A DNA stretch of 64,000 nt. Origin: Candidatus Heimdallarchaeum aukensis. Its GTDB lineage: Archaea; Asgardarchaeota; Heimdallarchaeia; Heimdallarchaeales; Heimdallarchaeaceae. This document shows, piece after piece, positions 22,260-46,805 of the stretch. The notes beneath the pieces were generated by a model. That model did not search any database. It worked only from the letters and a program-made list of their open reading frames with translations, and was not told the origin of the DNA. The translations under genes were made by a program, and so were the position numbers. Position 1 is the stretch's first letter. Each line of letters starts with the position of its first letter. Location of the stretch: assembly GCA_021513695.1 (NCBI GenBank), contig CP084166.1:2272001-2336000 (forward strand), read 5' to 3'.

Positions 22260-23723
22260 TTAGAGTTGTTTGTAATTGATAATTCTAACTGTTAGTGGTT
22301 TTTTTGAAATATCTGCAATTCTTGCACCAATTATAAGTGAGATTCCTTTTGTATGTGCAATTTCAAGTAATCTTTGAGTTACTACTCCATCCACTATCAT
22401 TGTTTGAGCTTTTTCAATATTTTGTAGTTTGTTAAAAATCTCTTTTACTGAACTTTTTAGCACAACATTATAATTTTCATCAAAAACAACAGCTTCAAAT
22501 TGTTGTTTTACATCATTTACAGCTTTTTCTAACTGTTCAGGAAGCCTTATTCTTCTGATTACGCGTCTGGTGTGTTGTTGTCTTCCGCTTTGTGGATAAC
22601 TTCTTTGTTGTCTTCCGCTTTGTGGATAACTTCTTTGTTGTCTTCCGCTTTGTGGATAACTTCTTTGTTGTCTTCCATTCTGTGGATAACTTCTCTGTGG
22701 ATGACTTATTTGCTCTTTTTGTGGAGTGTGTCTATGATGAATCTCTTGTTCGTCTCTTCTTATAGTTTTTGAGGGGCGGAGTTCATGTTCATCTCTTTTT
22801 TTGCGTTTTTTTGGTTCTCCCTTTCTCTTTGTTCTCTCCTTGAACTCTGCAACAGTGATACCTTTATCGCTTCCAGTCAAGAAAATTGCTTTTTCTATCG
22901 GAACAGCATTTTTTAGTGCTTCATGTATCTCTGCCTCTGTGAGGTCTTCTACTTCTTTTCCCACAGGTGCTCTAGCTACATAACTTACATTAGCAACTTG
23001 AATTAGTTCTTTTAAAATTAAGTCTGCTCCCCTATCTCCATCGAGAAAAGCTGTTACTGTTTTATTTTTTATCAATTCTAGTAGTTTTTTAGGTATACTT
23101 GTTCCATTAACTGCTATTGTATTATCTATTCCAACTTTCAATAGGTTTATTACGTCTGCTCTACCTTCTACTAGAATAACCTTAGACGATTTCTCAAACC
23201 CAGGTCCTGCGTTGAATTTTTCATCTGTTAAACGTATCACAGTAGATTCTTTTACTTTTTTTGATGATTCTTCAACTTCTCTTTGAATTGAAGCACTAAA
23301 AGGACTTACCTTTTCATCCCATTGTCTAATAATCTCTGCGGCCCGATTAACAATGGCTTTCCTCTTTTTTATTCTTACATCAGTTATCTCATTCAGTTTT
23401 ATTTCACAATTACAAGGTCCAACCCTATCTACTGTCTCAAGTGTTGCAGCTAAAATCGCTGTTTCAGTTCTTGATAGACTAGATGGGATGATAATTTCAC
23501 CTGTTGTTATTCCCTCTTTGCTTGATATTTTTACATCAATTCTTCCAATCTTTCCAGTTTTTTGTAATTCTCTAATATCTAATTCCTCACTGAGTAAACC
23601 ATCAGTTTGGCCATATAATGCCCCTATAATGTCTGGTTTTTCTACTATTCCAATTACTTTAAAATTTGCATGTATCTCATATTTTGTCGTTGCTGTATCG
23701 GTTTTAGCACCCATTTTCATCAT
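22260..23723 (-). CDS. dnaG: archaeal DnaG primase (TOPRIM) with internal repeat insertion
   Basis: N-terminal TKYEIHANFKVIGIVEKPDIIGALYGQTDGLL typical of archaeal DnaG. TOPRIM ILVEGRADVINL / DGDRGADLI. Basic and Q-rich insertion carries the QRSYPQSGRQ repeats. Confidence 0.88.
   Translation of the reverse strand: MMKMGAKTDTATTKYEIHANFKVIGIVEKPDIIGALYGQTDGLLSEELDIRELQKTGKIGRIDVKISSKEGITTGEIIIPSSLSRTETAILAATLETVDRVGPCNCEIKLNEITDVRIKKRKAIVNRAAEIIRQWDEKVSPFSASIQREVEESSKKVKESTVIRLTDEKFNAGPGFEKSSKVILVEGRADVINLLKVGIDNTIAVNGTSIPKKLLELIKNKTVTAFLDGDRGADLILKELIQVANVSYVARAPVGKEVEDLTEAEIHEALKNAVPIEKAIFLTGSDKGITVAEFKERTKRKGEPKKRKKRDEHELRPSKTIRRDEQEIHHRHTPQKEQISHPQRSYPQNGRQQRSYPQSGRQQRSYPQSGRQQRSYPQSGRQQHTRRVIRRIRLPEQLEKAVNDVKQQFEAVVFDENYNVVLKSSVKEIFNKLQNIEKAQTMIVDGVVTQRLLEIAHTKGISLIIGARIADISKKPLTVRIINYKQL
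22575..22706 (-). repeat. 30-bp in-frame tandem repeat, about 4.4 copies, inside dnaG
   Basis: Plus-strand unit ttgttgtcttccgctttgtggataacttct is identical at 22575, 22605 and 22635, variant at 22665, then a partial copy. Encodes QRSYPQ(S/N)GRQ. Confidence 0.95.
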
Positions 23724-25601: not shown

Positions 25602-26657
25602 CTATATAAGACCCCTTTCCATGAGAACTCTAAATTCTTCAAGAGATAAACTCTCACCATTCTTATATTTTGTCAGAATGGCTTCAGCTCTTGAATCTAG
25701 AATCTCATCTCTTATTTGTTTAGCTCTGATTTTCCTTTCTTTTCTTCGTGCTTTTAGCTCAATTCCTACTGTTTTTGAAAGGATTTTCATATCTTTTGTT
25801 ATAGAATCTAATTCTTTCTTTATTTCTTTAATTTTAGAGCTAATAGTTAATACTTCTGCGTGTAATGAATCTGCTTCTTCTTTTGCAATTTTAGCTTCTT
25901 TTGTGGCTTCAACCATTCTCTTCTGATGAACTTGTGATTGATTAGCTAGTGTAGTGACGCTTGTATGATATGTTTTAATTTCCATTTGCATTTGTCTGAG
26001 TTTATTTTGCATTTCTTTAATTTCACTCTTTAGTTCTCTGAAAATCTCTAGTTTTTCAAGTGCTCCACTTAATGCTTCTAACTGCTTAAGGGTTTCTCTC
26101 TCTTGATCTTTATCCAGAAAAGGAGTTGTTTCTAGTTTTCTTTCAATAGCTCTTATTTTTTCACCTACTCTTCTATCTCGAGGAGCTCCTACATCTTTTA
26201 TCTTTGAGGATAGCTCTAAAAGTCTATTTTTAATCTTCTCTGCTTCCTCTTTAAGGATATCTCTCATCTGTTTTCTTACTTGTACTTCTTCGTTGATTTT
26301 GTCTCTTTTCTCTTTTTCACTTCTTGCTTCCTGAAAAAGTTTCTTCACAAGTTCATTTTTCTCGTCTCGTAACTTTCTCTTCTCACTTCTTTCTTCTAAA
26401 AGTCTATGTAATTCATTAGAAAGCATACTTCGTCTTTGTCTAAGATAACTTAGTTTCTCTTTCTTTTCCTCAAGACTGAGTTCAGCAAAACGTGATTCTT
26501 CTTTCTCTTTTTGTTCTTCAGTATCTGTTTTTGGGGTAGCTTGTTCCTGTATTAATTCTTGTTTTTGTTCTTGTTCTGGATTAGCTTTGTTTTCCCCTGT
26601 TAATTCAGATTCACTCTCTTCCTCTTTGATATTAATATTTTCCTCGTTCGAGCTCAT
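25602..26657 (-). CDS. long coiled-coil protein (COG1340-like)
   Basis: 351 aa, acidic N-terminus, then continuous K/E/R/L heptad-like sequence. Confidence 0.6.
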   Translation of the reverse strand: MSSNEENINIKEEESESELTGENKANPEQEQKQELIQEQATPKTDTEEQKEKEESRFAELSLEEKKEKLSYLRQRRSMLSNELHRLLEERSEKRKLRDEKNELVKKLFQEARSEKEKRDKINEEVQVRKQMRDILKEEAEKIKNRLLELSSKIKDVGAPRDRRVGEKIRAIERKLETTPFLDKDQERETLKQLEALSGALEKLEIFRELKSEIKEMQNKLRQMQMEIKTYHTSVTTLANQSQVHQKRMVEATKEAKIAKEEADSLHAEVLTISSKIKEIKKELDSITKDMKILSKTVGIELKARRKERKIRAKQIRDEILDSRAEAILTKYKNGESLSLEEFRVLMERGLI

Positions 26658-26749: not shown

Positions 26750-26908
26750 TTATTTTTTGTCAGATCGTCTCATACGTAGATTCTTTGATCTGCATTTTCT
26801 ACATTTTTTTGCAGTTATCGGGTTAGTAGCTGAGCATTCTCTACAAACCTTTACATCCATCAGATGTGCTCGTGCTATTGCGCGATGTTCGGGATTAGTT
26901 ACTGGCAT
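26750..26908 (-). CDS. rpl40e: 50S ribosomal protein L40e (52 aa), not in ORF track
   Basis: Hand translation MPVTNPEHRAIARAHLMDVKVCRECSATNPITAKKCRKCRSKNLRMRRSDKK, showing the C-x2-C...C-x2-C zinc ribbon and basic tail of L40e. The track's 26757..26993 plus-strand ORF is its antisense. Confidence 0.85.
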   Translation of the reverse strand: MPVTNPEHRAIARAHLMDVKVCRECSATNPITAKKCRKCRSKNLRMRRSDKK

Positions 26909-27305
26909 TTTTTTAAACTCCTATAATTCTCCTTTACGTGTCCTAATTTCTGCTCTGTGTTTGATATTAAAAAAATTTCTATCGGTGTCTTGAACTTTTG
27001 TCTGAAGGAGTATTTATCAAGTAAAATTTAGTGTTGTTGTTTCTCCGTTAAACAACTTGATTTCTGCGTAGTTTTTTGTATGTTGATCCTGCACTCAGAT
27101 AAGCTAATTCAAGAGAGTGCAACTAGCATCTATTAACCTGAGGAGAAGGTTAAGTTTTCTTATATTAATTGGAGCAAAATGAAACAAACTCTTGCTCATA
27201 AAGAGCTGTTAGTATTTATGCTTCTATGTTTTAGAAAGACTAAAAAGTGATAATGTTTTGAATTACTCAAAGCGGTTTAATAATTGTCGAATGGCGGTTG
27301 TAACA

Positions 27306-28523
27306 ATGAATAAAACTATACAAGAAACGCTTAAATGGTTTGAAAATGAAATTTCTTCTGAACTTGCTAAACCTAGAAAAACTGCTTCTAAGCACCTTGA
27401 TGTTATAAAAGATAGGGTAAATGATATTAAAGATACTTCAGAAAGATTTGATTATAGTGATGTTAACGATCCTGATGTTTATCAAAACTATGCTACATCA
27501 ATTTATAAGAAAACTTTAGAAAAAATGAATGAAATTGAATTTCCAGAAGTAATTACATATAAGAATATTGACGATTTTTATAATCGGACTTTAAATATCC
27601 TTAATTCATATATTGAAATTCTAGCGAAGTACTTAACTTGGCTTAAACGTGATCGTTCTTATAAAACTAGAGTTAAAAATTTAGATAGGGCAATTACTAG
27701 ATTACAGCAAGAATTGTATAAACTTAACACAAAAACACTTGATGAATACTTAGAATATGAAAAATATGAGAGCGTGATTGATGATTTAAACTATCTGCAG
27801 GAATTAATTAATAGAAAAAAAGAAATTGAAAATGAAATTGAATCTCACAAAGATGATATTGAGCGATTAGATAAAATCATTGCAGAAAAATCTCGTGAAA
27901 AAGAAGAATTAGAGGGTCACCCGGGTTTTGCACAGCTAAAAGAAAATAAGGCGAAACTTTCACAGATTGAACTTACTATCTCTTCCAAAGTTAATGAAAT
28001 TAAGAAATTATGCTCAAAAATACTTAAAGCTGCTGATACAAGAAAAGTTGAACTTGACGATTATACACGAGAGCTGATTAAATCTATTATCAAAAATCCG
28101 CTAGAAGAGCTTGTTAAGGAAACTGATGGATATCCTGGCATCAAAAGTATGTTAAAAGAAGTTAGAAAGATTAGTGAATCACCAAATATTCAAATGAAAA
28201 AGGAGAAACTAGAAAAAGCTTTTAACAATATGGAGGAAATTCTAAACGATAGTTTACTTGACCTACAAAAAGAAGCTAAATTTTTACTAAAACAAACACA
28301 AGCTATTGAAGAGAAATTCGCTGAATTAGAAATTGATCGGAAAATATCCAAATTAAAACGTGAAATTGAAGACCTAAAAATAGATAAAGATAGAATAACA
28401 TTAGCTCAACGACGCGAATTAGCTGAAATAGAAAAAGAAGTAAACAATCTTTATGAAGATTTAATGAAACGTATAGAAGAATATACTGGAAAACACGTAA
28501 ATATTCTCTTAGAAGCCACTTGA
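27306..28523 (+). CDS. long coiled-coil protein (about 405 aa)
   Basis: Likely ATG at 27306 (MNKTIQ...); the track's 27258 start is a non-ATG extension. Nearly all helical K/E/L/I sequence. First gene of the Roadblock-GTPase string. Confidence 0.6.
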   Translation: MNKTIQETLKWFENEISSELAKPRKTASKHLDVIKDRVNDIKDTSERFDYSDVNDPDVYQNYATSIYKKTLEKMNEIEFPEVITYKNIDDFYNRTLNILNSYIEILAKYLTWLKRDRSYKTRVKNLDRAITRLQQELYKLNTKTLDEYLEYEKYESVIDDLNYLQELINRKKEIENEIESHKDDIERLDKIIAEKSREKEELEGHPGFAQLKENKAKLSQIELTISSKVNEIKKLCSKILKAADTRKVELDDYTRELIKSIIKNPLEELVKETDGYPGIKSMLKEVRKISESPNIQMKKEKLEKAFNNMEEILNDSLLDLQKEAKFLLKQTQAIEEKFAELEIDRKISKLKREIEDLKIDKDRITLAQRRELAEIEKEVNNLYEDLMKRIEEYTGKHVNILLEAT

Positions 28524-28694
28524 TTAATAGCTTTTTTTTTTATTTTTTATAAAGAAATGATATTGCAATTATCAACACAATTTTTAAATGATATGACTAA
28601 ATGATATAAGATAGTAAACATAGAACAACATTTAATATGTTTAACATCATTTAGCATATTAAGGATATGTAAATATATTTGAGGAGAATCAACT

Positions 28695-28994
28695 ATGATT
28701 TCACAAAAACAATTTGAAGAAACTCTGAAAAAGTTAGAAAGCCATCCCAGTGTAAGGGGCGTTATAATAACAAGTAATGATGGCTTACCTATCTCTAGTA
28801 CAAAAAATCTTTCAATAGAAATGCGAGAAAATGTTTCAGCATTAGTAGCTTCATTGGTTGGAAGAGCTAAAGCTGTGGTTAGCGAACTAGAAGAAGGAGA
28901 CTTGAATTTCTTTACTTTAGACACAACAAAGGGTGAGATTCTTGTCGCTCCAGAACAGGATTATGTGTTAATCGTTTTACGTAATAAGCAATAA
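28695..28994 (+). CDS. Roadblock/LC7 (MglB-like) protein
   Basis: 99 aa. [22 protein letters not shown]...[10 protein letters not shown]...[16 protein letters not shown] fits the Roadblock/LC7 pattern. gaggag RBS upstream. Confidence 0.8.
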
Positions 28995-29065
28995 TAGAGT
29001 CATCATTAGTAGAAATTATATATAAAAGAAATAGGTTTCATTAAACAACGGAAGAGAGAGTTAGA

Positions 29066-29632
29066 ATGAGAAAAGATGCCTCAGGAAAGCAACACTTTAA
29101 GATAGTGTTTGTTGGACCTAGTTTAGCTGGAAAAACAACTTTACTTAGAAGACTCCATTCTGATGTCACAGGAATAAAAAAAGGTGGATTAAACAGTATA
29201 GAAGATCCTTCAGGAAGAACAATTTACTTTGATTTCTCACCTTTTATGGCGACATCAAATGTCATTTTGGATATTTACACAGTGGCTGGTCAAAAAAGGC
29301 ATAGACACCAAAGGGCGTTAGTTTTGAAGGGTGTTGACGGTCTCTTGTTTGTTGCAGATTCTTCAAGAGCGATGTTGGCCGATAATGTCGAATCAGCAGA
29401 AGAATTGAAAAAAGAACTTGGAGACAAATTAAACAATGAGATTCCACTAGTTATAGTTCTAAATAAACGTGATTTGCCAGATGCAATGGATAAACGAGAG
29501 TTAATCGATGCTTTAAATCTTGGAACAAATTTACCAGTTTACGAAACAATCGCCACAGAAGGTATAGGTGTTAAACGCGCTTTTCAGTCCCTAGCTAGAG
29601 AAGTTTTATTAAAACAAGTTTATAACATGTAG
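29066..29632 (+). CDS. MglA-family small GTPase
   Basis: G1 GPSLAGKTT, G3 TVAGQ (Thr in place of Ras Asp, as in MglA), G4 NKRD. 188 aa. Confidence 0.75.
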   Translation: MRKDASGKQHFKIVFVGPSLAGKTTLLRRLHSDVTGIKKGGLNSIEDPSGRTIYFDFSPFMATSNVILDIYTVAGQKRHRHQRALVLKGVDGLLFVADSSRAMLADNVESAEELKKELGDKLNNEIPLVIVLNKRDLPDAMDKRELIDALNLGTNLPVYETIATEGIGVKRAFQSLAREVLLKQVYNM

Positions 29633-29653: not shown

Positions 29654-30994
29654 ATGAACTTGGAGAACAATTTTTTAACCTTTTTTTTAGCTTGTAAATA
29701 TCGTTTTAAAAATTTAAAAGGAGAAAAGCTTCAAAGATATCAAGAAAATCGGTTGAAGAAAATTGTTGATTATAGTGTAAAAAATTCTCCTTTTTTTAAG
29801 AGGTATTATTCTAATTACAACATTAATGATGTTTTCAATTTACCGACTGTAAATAAACATATAATGATGGAAAACCTATCAGAGTATAACACAGTTGGTT
29901 TTACAAAAGAAGAATTAATCAATTTCTGTTTGGAAGTGGAAAGGTCTAGGGACTTTTCTAAGAGATATAAAAAGTATAATGTTGCTATGTCTTCTGGAAC
30001 AAGCGGAAATAAAGGAATTGTAATAACTAGTCCAAAAGAAGAACGATATCTTAAAGCAGCTTTTTTTGCACGATTCCCTTTTCCTAGAACCTTGAAATTA
30101 AATATCGCTTTTATTTTGAGGGTTAGTACTCCTGCATTTAACATTAATAAATTTGGACAGAAACTCACCCATTTCAGTTTGCTTGATCCCCTAGAAGAAA
30201 TAGTAGAAAATCTAAACTCGCTTCAACCAAATATTCTCTCTGCTCCTCCTTCAATGCTCAATCTTCTTGCGGACGAGTACAGTGAGGGAAAGTTATGCAT
30301 TAAACCAAAAAAAATTATCTCTTATGCTGAAATCTTATATCCCGATATTAGAAAAAAAGTTGAAGAAACTTTTGGTATTAGAATTGATGAAATCTACCAA
30401 GCAAGTGAAGGCCCAATCGCTATGACTTGTAAACATGGATCATTACACATAAATGAAGACCTACTTGTTTTACAAACTCTAAACGAAGATGGTAGTCCAA
30501 CAGAAAAAGGAGAACTTTGCCACAAACTTATTGTATCTGATTTATATAAAACATCTCAACCCATAATCCGCTTTGAACTTAACGATATGATTAGAATAAG
30601 AGCTGAAAAATGTACTTGCGGTTCTGGATTTAGAATAATCGATGAAATTGTAGGGCGAACTGATGATTTATTAATTGGGGTTAATTCATCTACTGGTCAG
30701 GTTCATTACATTTTTCCTGATTATATACGCAGAGCTATTATCTCTTCTTCTGAGCAAGTAATCGAGTATCAAGCAATTCAAACCAGTAAAAACAGATTAG
30801 AAATTTCAATTCAATTATCAAAAGATAAAGACGAATTCCAAAACATCAAATCAGTTATCAAAAGAGCTGTAGAACAAGTTTTCAAAACTTACAATTGTGA
30901 GATTCCTGATGTTACAGTGAAAATTAGTCAATCTCAACTTCATCCAGTTTCTAAGAAGTTAATACGCATTCAACGAAAGTTTTCTATTGCTTGA
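29654..30994 (+). CDS. adenylate-forming enzyme, phenylacetate-CoA ligase / F390 synthetase family (COG1541-like)
   Basis: MSSGTSGNKG (SSGTTG-type P-loop), YQASEG, GRTDDLLIG motifs. Confidence 0.7.
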   Translation: MNLENNFLTFFLACKYRFKNLKGEKLQRYQENRLKKIVDYSVKNSPFFKRYYSNYNINDVFNLPTVNKHIMMENLSEYNTVGFTKEELINFCLEVERSRDFSKRYKKYNVAMSSGTSGNKGIVITSPKEERYLKAAFFARFPFPRTLKLNIAFILRVSTPAFNINKFGQKLTHFSLLDPLEEIVENLNSLQPNILSAPPSMLNLLADEYSEGKLCIKPKKIISYAEILYPDIRKKVEETFGIRIDEIYQASEGPIAMTCKHGSLHINEDLLVLQTLNEDGSPTEKGELCHKLIVSDLYKTSQPIIRFELNDMIRIRAEKCTCGSGFRIIDEIVGRTDDLLIGVNSSTGQVHYIFPDYIRRAIISSSEQVIEYQAIQTSKNRLEISIQLSKDKDEFQNIKSVIKRAVEQVFKTYNCEIPDVTVKISQSQLHPVSKKLIRIQRKFSIA

Positions 30995-45881: not shown

Positions 45882-46805
45882 TTAAAAAGCTAGTTCTAAC
45901 TCATCTACAGCTTTTATTTCATTTTGTTTAATGATGTGCTTTTCCCATGTTTCTGTGTCGATAGCCAACTTTAGAACTTCCTCGAATTCTATTCTTTTGT
46001 TATAGTCTTGAAATATCTCAATAGCTTTGTTTTCATTTTCTTTAATCCACTCGTTAGAAAAATTAGATAGAAATTCAGTAAATATCTGGTAAGCTTTTAT
46101 TTTTTCTTTATTTGTTGTTAAAACGATTGTAAACGCTTTTTCTATTTTTCTAATGAGGACTATGATGTGCTCTGATTCTATTTCAGTTAAATCTCCTAGA
46201 CCATATTGCTGACTCATGTTCAGTATTGCAGAAATAAAAGCGACTAATAAAACAGCATCATAAGGTAAAGATTGGGTAATTAGCAGATACAAAGGTTGTC
46301 CATCTTCATTTGCAATCAATATGTCTAAATCCTTTAGAACCAAGCCAAACGATGTAAATATTTTTTCGTTACCAACTTTTATTTTTTCAATATTTGTTCT
46401 TTTGTTTACAACTAAATTTAGTGATCTCGCAAAATTACTCACTTGCTTTCTCTCATATTCTATAGTCTTTTTATCTTCCATTATGTCATTTATAGAACTA
46501 CTTTTGACCCATGCAAATTGTTGACGAAAGATTTTTACTACTTTTTTGACTACTGTTGAATAATAATCCTTTTTCTTGACGATAACTAAAAAATAATCAT
46601 TTACTGCTTCATAAATAACTTCATTTTCTCCAAAAATGACTTTTTTTGGTATTTTTTCTCCTAATTCTGTAGTAAGTGTTGTCACAGCACTTATGAAACT
46701 TATAAGGGACGCTTTGATTTCCCTGTTAGACCAGGTTCCATGATAGATTCTGTAAAACCTACATGAACCGTTTCTTTTTAGTATCAAAATGGCCTTGATT
46801 AACAC
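45882..46805 (-). CDS. hypothetical protein with two Roadblock/longin-like modules (fold call by eye)
   Basis: MLIKAILILKRNGSCRFYRIY...YFLVIVKKKD and DILIANEDGQPLYLLITQ...AFTIVLTTNKEK resemble the strand-helix-strand pattern of longin/Roadblock domains. Confidence 0.45.
   Translation of the reverse strand: MLIKAILILKRNGSCRFYRIYHGTWSNREIKASLISFISAVTTLTTELGEKIPKKVIFGENEVIYEAVNDYFLVIVKKKDYYSTVVKKVVKIFRQQFAWVKSSSINDIMEDKKTIEYERKQVSNFARSLNLVVNKRTNIEKIKVGNEKIFTSFGLVLKDLDILIANEDGQPLYLLITQSLPYDAVLLVAFISAILNMSQQYGLGDLTEIESEHIIVLIRKIEKAFTIVLTTNKEKIKAYQIFTEFLSNFSNEWIKENENKAIEIFQDYNKRIEFEEVLKLAIDTETWEKHIIKQNEIKAVDELELAF

Follow-up and report, generated by a model that had tools for sequence, protein, structure and literature searches.

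The three neighbouring genes analysed here encode, in our reading, an Asgard MglA nucleotide switch made up of the GTPase MglA1 and the Roadblock protein Rb, with the helical protein CC405 as its probable adaptor, effector or co-regulator, a view that we favour with moderate confidence. The MglA/Roadblock switch itself is of a known kind, and CC405 is plausibly a new, lineage-specific partner and a candidate third component. All three open reading frames lie on the + strand of the window (the whole 64-kb stretch of DNA that was analysed): CC405 at 27306..28523 (405 aa counted from ATG), Rb at 28695..28994 (99 aa), and the GTPase at 29066..29632 (188 aa). The gaps read from these frames are exactly 171 nt between CC405 and Rb and 71 nt between Rb and the GTPase, which reproduces the coordinates and spacing of the three co-oriented genes described in an earlier note on this DNA. 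An alternative TTG start at 27258 would add 16 residues to CC405 that its relatives do not share, which makes the ATG at 27306 the more likely start codon.

The intergenic signals were read directly from the sequence, as the host is an archaeon. A run of ten T residues (28532..28541, + strand) stands 9 nt past the CC405 stop codon, is the sole + strand T run of at least ten in the window, and is a probable archaeal oligo-T terminator. Its position after CC405 speaks against a single three-gene transcript, as the grouping into one module had implied, and suggests that CC405 is probably transcribed separately from Rb and MglA1. The AT-rich spacer upstream of the Rb ATG (28631..28686, + strand) contains two TATA-like octamers, TTTAATAT at 28631-28638 and TAAATATA at 28670-28677, and a GAGGAG at 28681-28686 that might be a ribosome-binding site, so that Rb may have a promoter and ribosome-binding site of its own.

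The 188-aa protein belongs to MglA group 1 and retains Arg51 and Gln76, the catalytic residues of this GTPase family. Its motifs, all on the + strand, are G1 GPSLAGKTT (residues 17-25, 29114-29140), the switch-I segment GRTIYFDF with Arg51 (29213-29236), G3 TVAGQ with Thr72 and Gln76 (residues 72-76, 29279-29293), and G4 NKRD (residues 133-136, 29462-29473); G1, G4 and the G3 with Thr in place of Asp are present just as first described. G1 and G4 follow the canonical Ras-like patterns (GxxxxGKT and NKxD), and the TIGR00231 small_GTP model scores above its cut-off. Thr at the first position of G3, where Asp is otherwise universal, is a trait of the MglA family (PMC4316618, PMC3000849), and the combination of an Arg in G2 with TVxGQ is the signature of MglA Group 1, whereas groups 2-5 have GTPGQ and no intrinsic Arg (PMC4316618). 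We took Arg53 of Thermus thermophilus MglA, in switch I/G2 and missing from Groups 2-5, as the reference for an intrinsic arginine finger: Arg51 aligns with the Arg of ERTLFFDF in MglA, and TVAGQ aligns with TVPGQ of the T. thermophilus and Myxococcus xanthus proteins, to which the GTPase is 38-40% identical. R51, T72, A74, G75, and Q76 are invariant across 25 aligned Asgard orthologues. The alignment to MglA is also ungapped across the G1-G2 segment, described as a bacterial MglA insertion (PMC4316618).

The AF2 model of the GTPase (pLDDT 85, pTM 0.84) has MglA structures at Foldseek ranks 1-14 (TM 0.77-0.87, E 4e-18 to 3e-14), the best match outside MglA being ArfR1 at 1e-11. Motifs, sequence matches, and predicted fold thus agree with the MglA assignment made earlier. 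Coupling to a Roadblock/MglB gene within four genes is seen as well, in the form of Rb, 71 nt upstream; the traits of the family further include stimulation of GTPase activity by a Roadblock dimer and a β2 screw movement upon GTP binding. It is very improbable that the protein is instead an Arf/Rag-type eukaryotic-signature GTPase and the pair a Ragulator-Rag-like module. Arf is indeed the best Pfam model (4.8e-18), because no MglA-specific Pfam family was returned, some orthologues are named 'ADP-ribosylation factor-like' in databases, and the Roadblock protein has a weak LAMTOR5 match. Nevertheless, the GTPase scores 111 bits against MglA in the PDB (E 4e-31), compared to 48 bits for Arf (at most 48 for Arf and Rab) and 19.7 bits for Gtr1/RagA, has Thr for Asp in G3 together with the intrinsic Arg, and lacks the C-terminal Roadblock domain of Rag proteins. 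Asgard MglA1 is moreover an already recognised group, which the literature keeps distinct from ArfR, ArfL, and Rag (Klinger 2016 via 10.1101/2024.02.28.582541). MglA-specific motifs, scores, and fold together rule out an Arf/Rag identity.

Rb is, judging from its sequence, an orthologue of Thor-RB (PDB 7F8F) and is closest to the eukaryotic dynein light chain roadblock. Its match to Pfam Robl_LC7 covers residues 7-95 (E 1.3e-19), in line with the minimal 99-aa Roadblock/LC7 protein recognised from the start, and its identity is 53% to Thor-RB and 57% to Freya Rb. Single-sequence searches of the PDB gave 7F8F at 1.6e-25 and DYNLRB at 1e-15 to 1e-17, and the profile search gave 136 bits for 7F8F and 70-86 bits for DYNLRB1/2 and LC7 (E about 1e-23 to 1e-18), with CvnB5 (20 bits) and LAMTOR2 (17 bits) below DYNLRB. 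Bacterial MglB was absent from the PDB matches of the single sequence (E≤0.1) and of the profile (E≤1), and Rb has no MglB-like C-terminal extension past the Roadblock core. Orthology of Rb and MglB is therefore ruled out, all the more as the paralogue Rc does match MglB, and the suggestion that this Roadblock is the MglB equivalent does not hold by descent. A role of Rb as GAP is accordingly an extrapolation. The likeness to DYNLRB is an evolutionary one and assigns no function; archaea are not known to have dynein.

The remaining Roadblock paralogues of Asgard archaea provide the context for this pair. Rc (about 155 aa) has bacterial MglB as its best PDB match and also matches the Pfam LAMTOR3/MAPKK1_Int model, and Rd of related loci is of the MKD1-RB type and matches CvnB5 (3LEQ) at 5.5e-11. 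Ra, Rc, and Rd were not found in the 64-kb window. The commonest Asgard cluster is Ra|Rb-Rc-MglA1-Rd, and in the majority of Asgard lineages Rc precedes MglA1. As many as four Roadblock paralogues surround one GTPase, and in most of roughly 100 Asgard loci the distance from MglA1 to Rb or another paralogue is no more than about 1 kb. Among the 120 listed of 563 Rc homologues, Odin- and Hod-labelled sequences are present and names of Heimdallarchaeaceae or Kariarchaeaceae are absent; a Hod-type MglA1 locus (L106) carries Rc. No relevant publication was found for PDB entries 9JUE and 9JQ8.

CC405 is a soluble protein (pI 5.5, no transmembrane segment) and, on the evidence of its homologues, belongs to a so far uncharacterised family of Asgard proteins that measure about 400-435 aa. 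There are 80 close homologues of 404-408 aa, and the profile gave 143 matches, about 100 of them full length, whose source names include MAGs of the Heimdall, Hod, and Odin groups. Reversed and shuffled controls of the family returned no matches, which rules out an artefact of coiled-coil composition. The AF2 model (pLDDT 93, pTM 0.66, 13 helices) predicts an elongated all-helical protein with high confidence. Thus, the description of this protein as nearly pure coiled coil stands with respect to its helical nature, but its invariant, non-heptad motifs, RFDYSD..DPDVYQNY and WLKRDRSYK, show that it is no featureless coiled coil. Neither a Pfam or NCBIfam family nor a specific solved-fold match was found, the fold search giving generic helical bundles only, and no description of an association with MglA1 or Roadblock was found in the publications consulted on Asgard MglA and Roadblock proteins.

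What singles out CC405 is that Heimdallarchaeaceae/Kariarchaeaceae-type lineages have retained its gene next to MglA1 and/or Rb. In them, the three genes lie directly side by side in five different orders: CC>Rb>MglA1 (the window, L001, and L037), <CC Rb>MglA1> (L030 and L032), MglA1>CC>Rb> (L119, gaps of 51 and 181 nt), Rb>MglA1><CC (L120 and L108, gap of 8 nt), and <CC<Rb MglA1> (L122, gap of 48 nt). The spacing between CC and the pair is looser in other loci, namely L034 and L063 (1.2-2.7 kb), L035 (1.9 kb), and L012, L019, and L041 (4.6-5.8 kb). Since the CC proteins of the linked lineages show no more than about 25-28% identity and their flanking genes differ, the proximity of CC to the pair has outlasted extensive rearrangement; the lineages concerned have a common ancestry, and independent linkage events are therefore few. 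The five contiguous orders, and the several further arrangements within 6 kb, bear out the proposal that the helical protein is a candidate partner.

The linkage is nevertheless restricted. The co-oriented order CC-Rb-MglA1 is confined to the genus of the window (L001 and L037), and most other Heimdallarchaeaceae have the Roadblock gene Rd after CC on the same strand. In 25 other members of the family, CC lies between DUF371/Trm5 and Rd-DUF7121, and MglA1 lies beyond 6 kb of CC in at least ten Heimdallarchaeaceae loci with full 6-kb flanks. One locus (L118) has CC with no MglA1 within 10 kb, and another (L121) has MglA1 with no full CC. In Hod and Odin, the context is deoxyhypusine synthase, CC, a TRM5/TYW2-like methyltransferase, and RadA; no MglA1 and no adjacent Roadblock was found in these loci, which include one marginal Roadblock-like ORF about 4 kb off (Odin), and no link between CC and the pair was found in the other Asgard classes sampled. 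The three-gene module of the earlier note is therefore upheld as a contiguous group in Heimdall/Kari-type lineages, though not as a co-oriented unit beyond the genus, and the conservation of the coiled-coil gene beside the pair, which had been envisaged across archaea, extends to those same lineages and not to Hod, Odin, or the other sampled Asgard classes.

CC405 might instead be unrelated to the switch, a housekeeping-linked helical protein that drifted around an ancestral MglA1/Roadblock neighbourhood and came to its position in the window by a recent rearrangement, in which case the locus would be one more MglA/Roadblock pair. The housekeeping flanks in Hod and Odin, the adjacency of DUF371 and Trm5 to CC in typical Heimdallarchaeaceae and in L118, the gene order seen in the window's own genus only, and the terminator after CC405 would all fit, as would the block of F390, longin-like, Trm5, DUF371, and CC that splits MglA1 from Rd in typical loci, much like an insertion. 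Such drift would not readily account for five contiguous permutations in lineages in which Trm5 and DUF371 have moved away, for gaps of 8-51 nt between CC and MglA1 or Rb in three lineages, or for a Roadblock gene (Rb or Rd) directly after CC in several independent arrangements, and we regard it as rather unlikely.

A different relationship is suggested by the distribution of Rc. CC is found near the pair solely in loci without Rc, and the two are strictly complementary in the loci examined, none of the 49 Rc-containing MglA1 loci having CC and none of the 13 CC-containing loci having Rc. CC405 might then replace the MglB-type Rc in Heimdall/Kari-type lineages and itself serve MglA1 as GAP co-factor or exchange factor, a proposal to which the MglB-like best PDB matches of Rc, the window without Rc, and the missing family names among the listed Rc homologues would lend some weight. 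But the complementarity tracks phylogeny and may represent a single event, Rc may be encoded elsewhere in Heimdallarchaeaceae/Kariarchaeaceae genomes (120 of 563 Rc matches being listed), and the generic helical bundles of the fold search point to nothing specific. The CC family also occurs in Hod and Odin, where Rc homologues exist, and the Hod-type L106 locus has Rc. We consider this replacement improbable.

In the reading that we favour, an MglA switch with CC405 as partner, a Roadblock dimer would dock on MglA-GTP, position the intrinsic Arg and the Gln, and trigger hydrolysis, by analogy with MglA/MglB of T. thermophilus and M. xanthus, and the GTP/GDP cycle would likewise control where or when an effector assembles. 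As the window is without Rc, the platform would be an Rb homodimer, or Rb combined with Rd or Rc encoded elsewhere. CC405 would most likely bind the Roadblock dimer and/or MglA1-GTP, acting as adaptor, effector, or co-regulator, and polarity and membrane or cytoskeletal positioning are candidate cellular outputs. We further hypothesize, as an unlikely and tentative extension, that Heimdallarchaeaceae and Kariarchaeaceae remodelled the ancient Ra|Rb-Rc-MglA1-Rd cluster, from which Rc left and to which CC405 was recruited as an MglA regulator or effector of a class not recognised before, docking on a DYNLRB-like Roadblock dimer. If true, the remodelled cluster would be a prokaryotic precedent for eukaryotic helical adaptors such as the dynein intermediate chain on LC7 and LAMTOR1 on Ragulator.

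Compared to bacterial MglA/MglB of M. xanthus and T. thermophilus (PDB 3T12/3T1Q, 6IZW, 6H5B), the window has a GTPase of the same fold (TM 0.8-0.87) and of the sequence identity given above, and shares the G3 Thr, the Arg finger, the catalytic Gln, the G1-G2 segment, and the coupling to a Roadblock gene. It differs in having a 99-aa, DYNLRB-like Roadblock, in the missing MglB-like Rc, and in an archaeal host that lacks the gliding or type IV pilus effectors of bacteria. AglZ and FrzS, the coiled-coil partners of M. xanthus MglA, are long helical effectors or scaffolds that act with MglA-GTP. They share with CC405 the trait of a long helical protein as putative MglA-GTP partner, which is a functional analogy only, as CC405 has no sequence or fold relationship to them, no receiver domain, and no Pfam match. 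Streptomyces conservons (CvnA-D) and the MglA group 2-5/MglB systems likewise combine an MglA-family GTPase, a Roadblock protein, and lineage-specific extras, but have GTPGQ and no intrinsic Arg, in contrast to the Group 1 GTPase of the window, and their accessory proteins are unrelated (PMC4316618).

Closer relatives are the Asgard MglA1 group, to which the window GTPase belongs, and the Asgard Roadblock proteins with crystal structures, Thor-RB (7F8F) and MKD1-RB (7F8M) (Tran et al. 2024, PMC10933270); in addition to what has been described for Thor-RB, its orthologue family sits here in a conserved MglA1 cluster. The likeness to eukaryotic Roadblock platforms is architectural only. DYNLRB/LC7, which sits on the dynein intermediate chain, is the closest to Rb in sequence, the Ragulator (LAMTOR2/3 and 4/5 wrapped by LAMTOR1) with Rag recalls the up to four Roadblock paralogues per GTPase and the Rc-LAMTOR3 match, and helical partner proteins on Roadblock dimers are a further resemblance. 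Nevertheless, the GTPase here is MglA-type and not Rag, and CC405 is unlike the dynein intermediate chain or LAMTOR1.

The oldest small-GTPase switches include MglA/Roadblock pairs, and eukaryotes later came to use Roadblock dimers as platforms in dynein, Ragulator, and several GEF complexes. Asgard archaea have a bacterial-type MglA1 in a conserved cluster with Roadblock paralogues, among them the dynein-light-chain-like Thor-RB type, and Heimdall/Kari-type lineages keep a so far uncharacterised helical protein beside MglA1 and Rb. MglA1, Rb, Rd, CC405, and DUF7121, as expressible parts, would offer a test bed for a pre-eukaryotic assembly of Roadblock platform, GTPase, and helical adaptor.

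The DUF7121 gene (25602..26657, - strand) is the second long coiled-coil gene that had been noticed nearby, divergent from CC405, and it proved to be real and a conserved neighbour in relatives. It matches Pfam DUF7121 (PF23435) at 4.7e-11, with 43.1 bits against a gathering threshold of 29, over model positions 40-306 of 307, and its orthologue in L019 scores 75 bits. DUF7121 lies 1-5.5 kb from CC405 in 25 of 27 genome loci, the remaining two having truncated downstream flanks, and relatives show Rd followed by DUF7121; no literature on DUF7121 was found. An L40e gene (26750..26908) stands between it and CC405. On the other side, 21 nt downstream of the GTPase, a gene on the + strand (29654..30994) encodes an adenylate-forming enzyme related to F390 synthetase (TIGR02304, 6e-96). 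A related gene also follows MglA1 in L019, is located upstream of CC405 in L004, where a truncated MglA1 match lies at the locus edge, and is replaced by other genes in L030; synteny is likewise seen in L021. This enzyme is probably part of the context and not a component of the switch.

The three genes of the earlier note were recovered as described, co-oriented on the plus strand and separated by exactly 171 and 71 nt, in a window of ~31% G+C. They encode a helical protein of 405 aa counted from the ATG (CC405, 27306..28523), a minimal Roadblock protein of 99 aa (28695..28994; Pfam Robl_LC7, 1.3e-19) and a GTPase of 188 aa (29066..29632) with the expected G1 GPSLAGKTT (residues 17-25), Thr-containing G3 TVAGQ (72-76) and G4 NKRD (133-136). 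The divergent second coiled-coil gene (25602..26657, minus strand) also holds up, and its product matches Pfam family DUF7121. The region around the three genes is collinear with Candidatus Heimdallarchaeum endolithica PR6 (CP084167.1), at 76-100% protein identity. A TTG at 27258 would extend CC405 by 16 residues that are not conserved in homologues, so 27306 is the likely start codon. Nine nt past the CC405 stop codon lies a T10 run, the only plus-strand T run of at least 10 in the window, followed by T6 and an AT-rich spacer with TATA-like octamers and GAGGAG ahead of the Roadblock start codon, suggesting that CC405 is probably a separate transcript. The 71-nt spacer has no long T run, and the Roadblock and GTPase genes may be co-transcribed.

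The GTPase is an MglA Group 1 protein, which bears out its proposed MglA-family membership. Searched against all PDB sequences, it matches MglA of T. thermophilus and M. xanthus best, with 111 bits (E about 4e-31), whereas Arf and Rab reach at most 48 bits. It shares 38-40% of its residues with bacterial MglA and aligns to it without gaps in the G1-G2 segment. In the classification of Wuichet and Sogaard-Andersen (PMC4316618), Group 1 proteins carry Arg in G2 and a G3 of TVPGQ type; in Groups 2-5, G2 has Thr and G3 reads GTPGQ. The window protein has Arg51 in GRTIYFDF and T72-V-A-G-Q76 as G3, residues invariant across 25 Asgard orthologues. With its AlphaFold model (pLDDT 85, pTM 0.84), the top 14 Foldseek hits are MglA structures (TM 0.77-0.87, E 4e-18 to 3e-14); Asgard ArfR1, Rab and Arf rank below them. 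Orthologues with 50-99% identity come from MAGs labelled Heimdall-, Kari-, Hod-, Thor-, Freya-, Baldr- and Promethearchaeota. The GTPase is thus a member of a class already known, since "MglA1" is one of the Asgard small-GTPase groups (10.1101/2024.02.28.582541); "MglA bacterial-like GTPases" are also mentioned for Asgard (PMC10933270). Kari-type contigs encode, a few kb away from MglA1, a longer MglA-like paralogue of 251-253 aa that scores 92-101 bits with the Asgard MglA1 HMM (L121 13854-14609 and L119 19168-19929, both minus strand); in L121 it adjoins a GPN-loop GTPase (ATP_bind_1).

The Roadblock protein, by contrast with the earlier note's reading, is not an MglB orthologue. Its best PDB match is Thor-RB (7F8F, 1.6e-25, 53% identity), crystallised by Tran et al. 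2024 (PMC10933270), followed by eukaryotic dynein light chain roadblock. A profile built from 14 orthologues gives Thor-RB 136 bits, most DYNLRB/LC7 chains 70-86 bits and LAMTOR2 17 bits, and bacterial MglB is not among its PDB matches at E<=1, which rules out MglB orthology in favour of DYNLRB/LC7 and Thor-RB. We typed the Asgard Roadblock paralogues (Ra to Rd) by scoring every Roadblock ORF of 80 MglA1-centred metagenome loci and the genome loci with local HMMs; at 57% identity to a Freya Rb, the window protein is of Rb type. The widespread Asgard order is Ra on the minus strand, then Rb, Rc, MglA1 and Rd on the plus strand, complete in 26 loci and partial in many more, and Thor/Hod-type loci have Rc-MglA1...Rd. 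Rc (about 155 aa, directly 5' of MglA1) is the MglB-like paralogue: it matches the Pfam MAPKK1_Int/LAMTOR3 model, and in the PDB it is matched best by bacterial MglB (1.7e-5 as single sequence, 5e-6 as profile). Among the 120 matches listed, Rc homologues are 65-99% identical to the query and come from Freya-, Odin-, Loki-, Baldr-, Thor-, Hod- and Hel-group MAGs. Rd is of the MKD1-RB type (7F8M). Heimdallarchaeaceae and Kari-type loci contain Rb and Rd but not Rc, and a search of the 64-kb window found no Ra, Rc or Rd. Because the window Roadblock is not an MglB orthologue and the MglB-like Rc is not in the window, a cognate-GAP role would be an extrapolation; the GTPase would have as its platform either Rb2 or a pairing of Rb with a protein from another locus.

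The four paralogues surround MglA1 Asgard-wide (L028 4262-7065, L050, L107, L111 and about 45 more metagenome loci), a Ragulator-like multiplicity of Roadblock proteins about a bacterial-type GTPase. The recent PDB entries 9JUE_D, 9JQ8_A and 7YH1_D ("Roadblock/LC7 domain protein") rank among the closest structures to Rd, Ra and Rc; in the literature searched, only 7YH1 of the three codes was found in a relevant paper (PMC10933270).

A CC405 profile search of 1.8 billion representatives matched 143 proteins, about 100 of them full length (400-435 aa), collinear and 20-28% identical. Since reversed or shuffled family sequences gave zero matches to the profile, the relationship is homology, not composition. 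Named members come from Heimdall-, Hod- and Odinarchaeia MAGs and from one Bathyarchaeota- and one Diapherotrites-labelled MAG. Among 27 genome loci collected with the CC405 alignment, CC405 lies directly 5' of Rb-MglA1 only in PR6, of the window's own genus. Other Heimdallarchaeaceae show the order Trm5 (+), DUF371 (-), CC405 (+), in some a QRPTase gene, then Rd, DUF7121 and the cis-prenyltransferase gene UPPS (all +); Rd is 0.3-1.4 kb 3' of CC405 in 23 loci, and Rd and DUF7121 are jointly inverted in two. Rb-MglA1 with a following F390 synthetase-related gene (F390) is 4.6-5.8 kb 5' of CC405 in L012, L019 and L041, edge matches in L004, L008, L017 and L021 are consistent with the same block upstream, and at least 10 loci do not have it within the 6-kb CC405 flank. 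Taken by themselves, these genome loci would make the module of three genes seem an accident of one genus.

A wider sample of loci alters this picture. CC-family genes, Rb and MglA1 also adjoin one another in four more arrangements: CC divergent from Rb-MglA1 (L030, L032); MglA1-CC-Rb, co-oriented and spaced by 51 and 181 nt (L119); Rb-MglA1 convergent with CC across 8 nt (L120, Kariarchaeaceae, and L108); and Rb-CC, 48 nt apart, divergent from MglA1 (L122). The linkage is looser in L034, where CC precedes Rb by 177 nt with MglA1 2.7 kb off, and in L063 and L035. The CC proteins of these lineages are only about 25-28% identical to CC405, and their remaining neighbours differ. The proposed module stands as a contiguity of CC with the pair in several lineages, but its exact order is limited to the window's genus. 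Other loci speak against the linkage: L118, with CC and no MglA1, L121, with MglA1 and no full CC, the 49 Rc-containing MglA1 loci, all without CC, and the CC loci of Hod (L117 8939-13054) and Odin (L036 9038-13797). The last two share the context NrdD, deoxyhypusine synthase, CC, TRM5/TYW2-like methyltransferase, RadA and OST3/OST6; neither has MglA1 or a neighbouring Roadblock gene within 10 kb of CC, and in Odin one marginal Roadblock-like ORF lies some 4 kb off. Since CC also lies beside Trm5 (and DUF371) in Heimdallarchaeaceae, the methyltransferase may be its older linkage.

The family identities, catalytic residues and gene linkage of the switch are established by these data. In the mechanism we favour, a Roadblock dimer would bind MglA1-GTP and position Arg51 and Gln76 as in 3T1Q, and CC405 would bind the dimer and/or MglA1-GTP as adaptor, effector or co-regulator. 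The main rival, in which CC405 is a mere hitch-hiker in a slowly decaying gene neighbourhood, seems to us rather unlikely. A more radical and possible alternative is that CC405 took over from Rc as regulator. This reading draws on one pattern, the strict complementarity of CC and Rc among the loci examined (CC in 0 of 49 Rc-containing MglA1 loci), which may reflect a single event because it follows phylogeny.

The GTPase/Roadblock pair belongs to the known MglA1/Roadblock class, and differs from the Roadblock-GTPase-DENN operon of Liu et al. (10.1101/2020.10.19.343400). In the literature searched, we found no description of the four-paralogue organisation, of the crystallised Thor-RB family as a DYNLRB-like paralogue that is linked to MglA1 and separate from the MglB-like one, or of the recurrent association of the CC405 family and DUF7121 with the cluster in Heimdall/Kari-type lineages.

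The window F390 gene (29654..30994, plus strand; adenylate-forming enzyme, TIGR02304 6e-96) starts 21 nt past the MglA1 stop codon; F390 also directly follows MglA1 in L019, L004 edge matches are consistent, and a short-chain dehydrogenase takes its place in L030. Typical Heimdallarchaeaceae loci encode, between MglA1-F390 and Trm5, a 310-aa protein with a near-threshold match to the FUZ/MON1/HPS1 first longin domain (E 2.4e-5; L019 3330-4262, minus strand); its 43% identical homologue in the window (45891..46802, minus strand) lies 16 kb downstream. Rd repeatedly precedes or adjoins a cis-prenyltransferase (undecaprenyl/dolichyl diphosphate synthase, Pfam Prenyltransf) in L019 (7485-9807; Rd, DUF7121, UPPS), L034, L119, L120, L121, L122 and L028, a site that in Heimdallarchaeaceae also holds DUF7121. 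The window DUF7121 gene has lost its upstream Rd neighbour and is preceded by an L40e gene. In L033 (7866-10567, Heimdallarchaeaceae), MglA1 lacks an upstream Rb, and a TnpB/IS605-type fragment (OrfB_IS605, Cas12f1-like_TNB) 1.3 kb upstream suggests a mobile-element-mediated rearrangement. Finally, the linker of an archaeal DnaG primase homologue (Toprim gene 22260..23723) contains four tandem 10-residue units RSYPQ[NS]GRQQ (22575..22694, minus strand).
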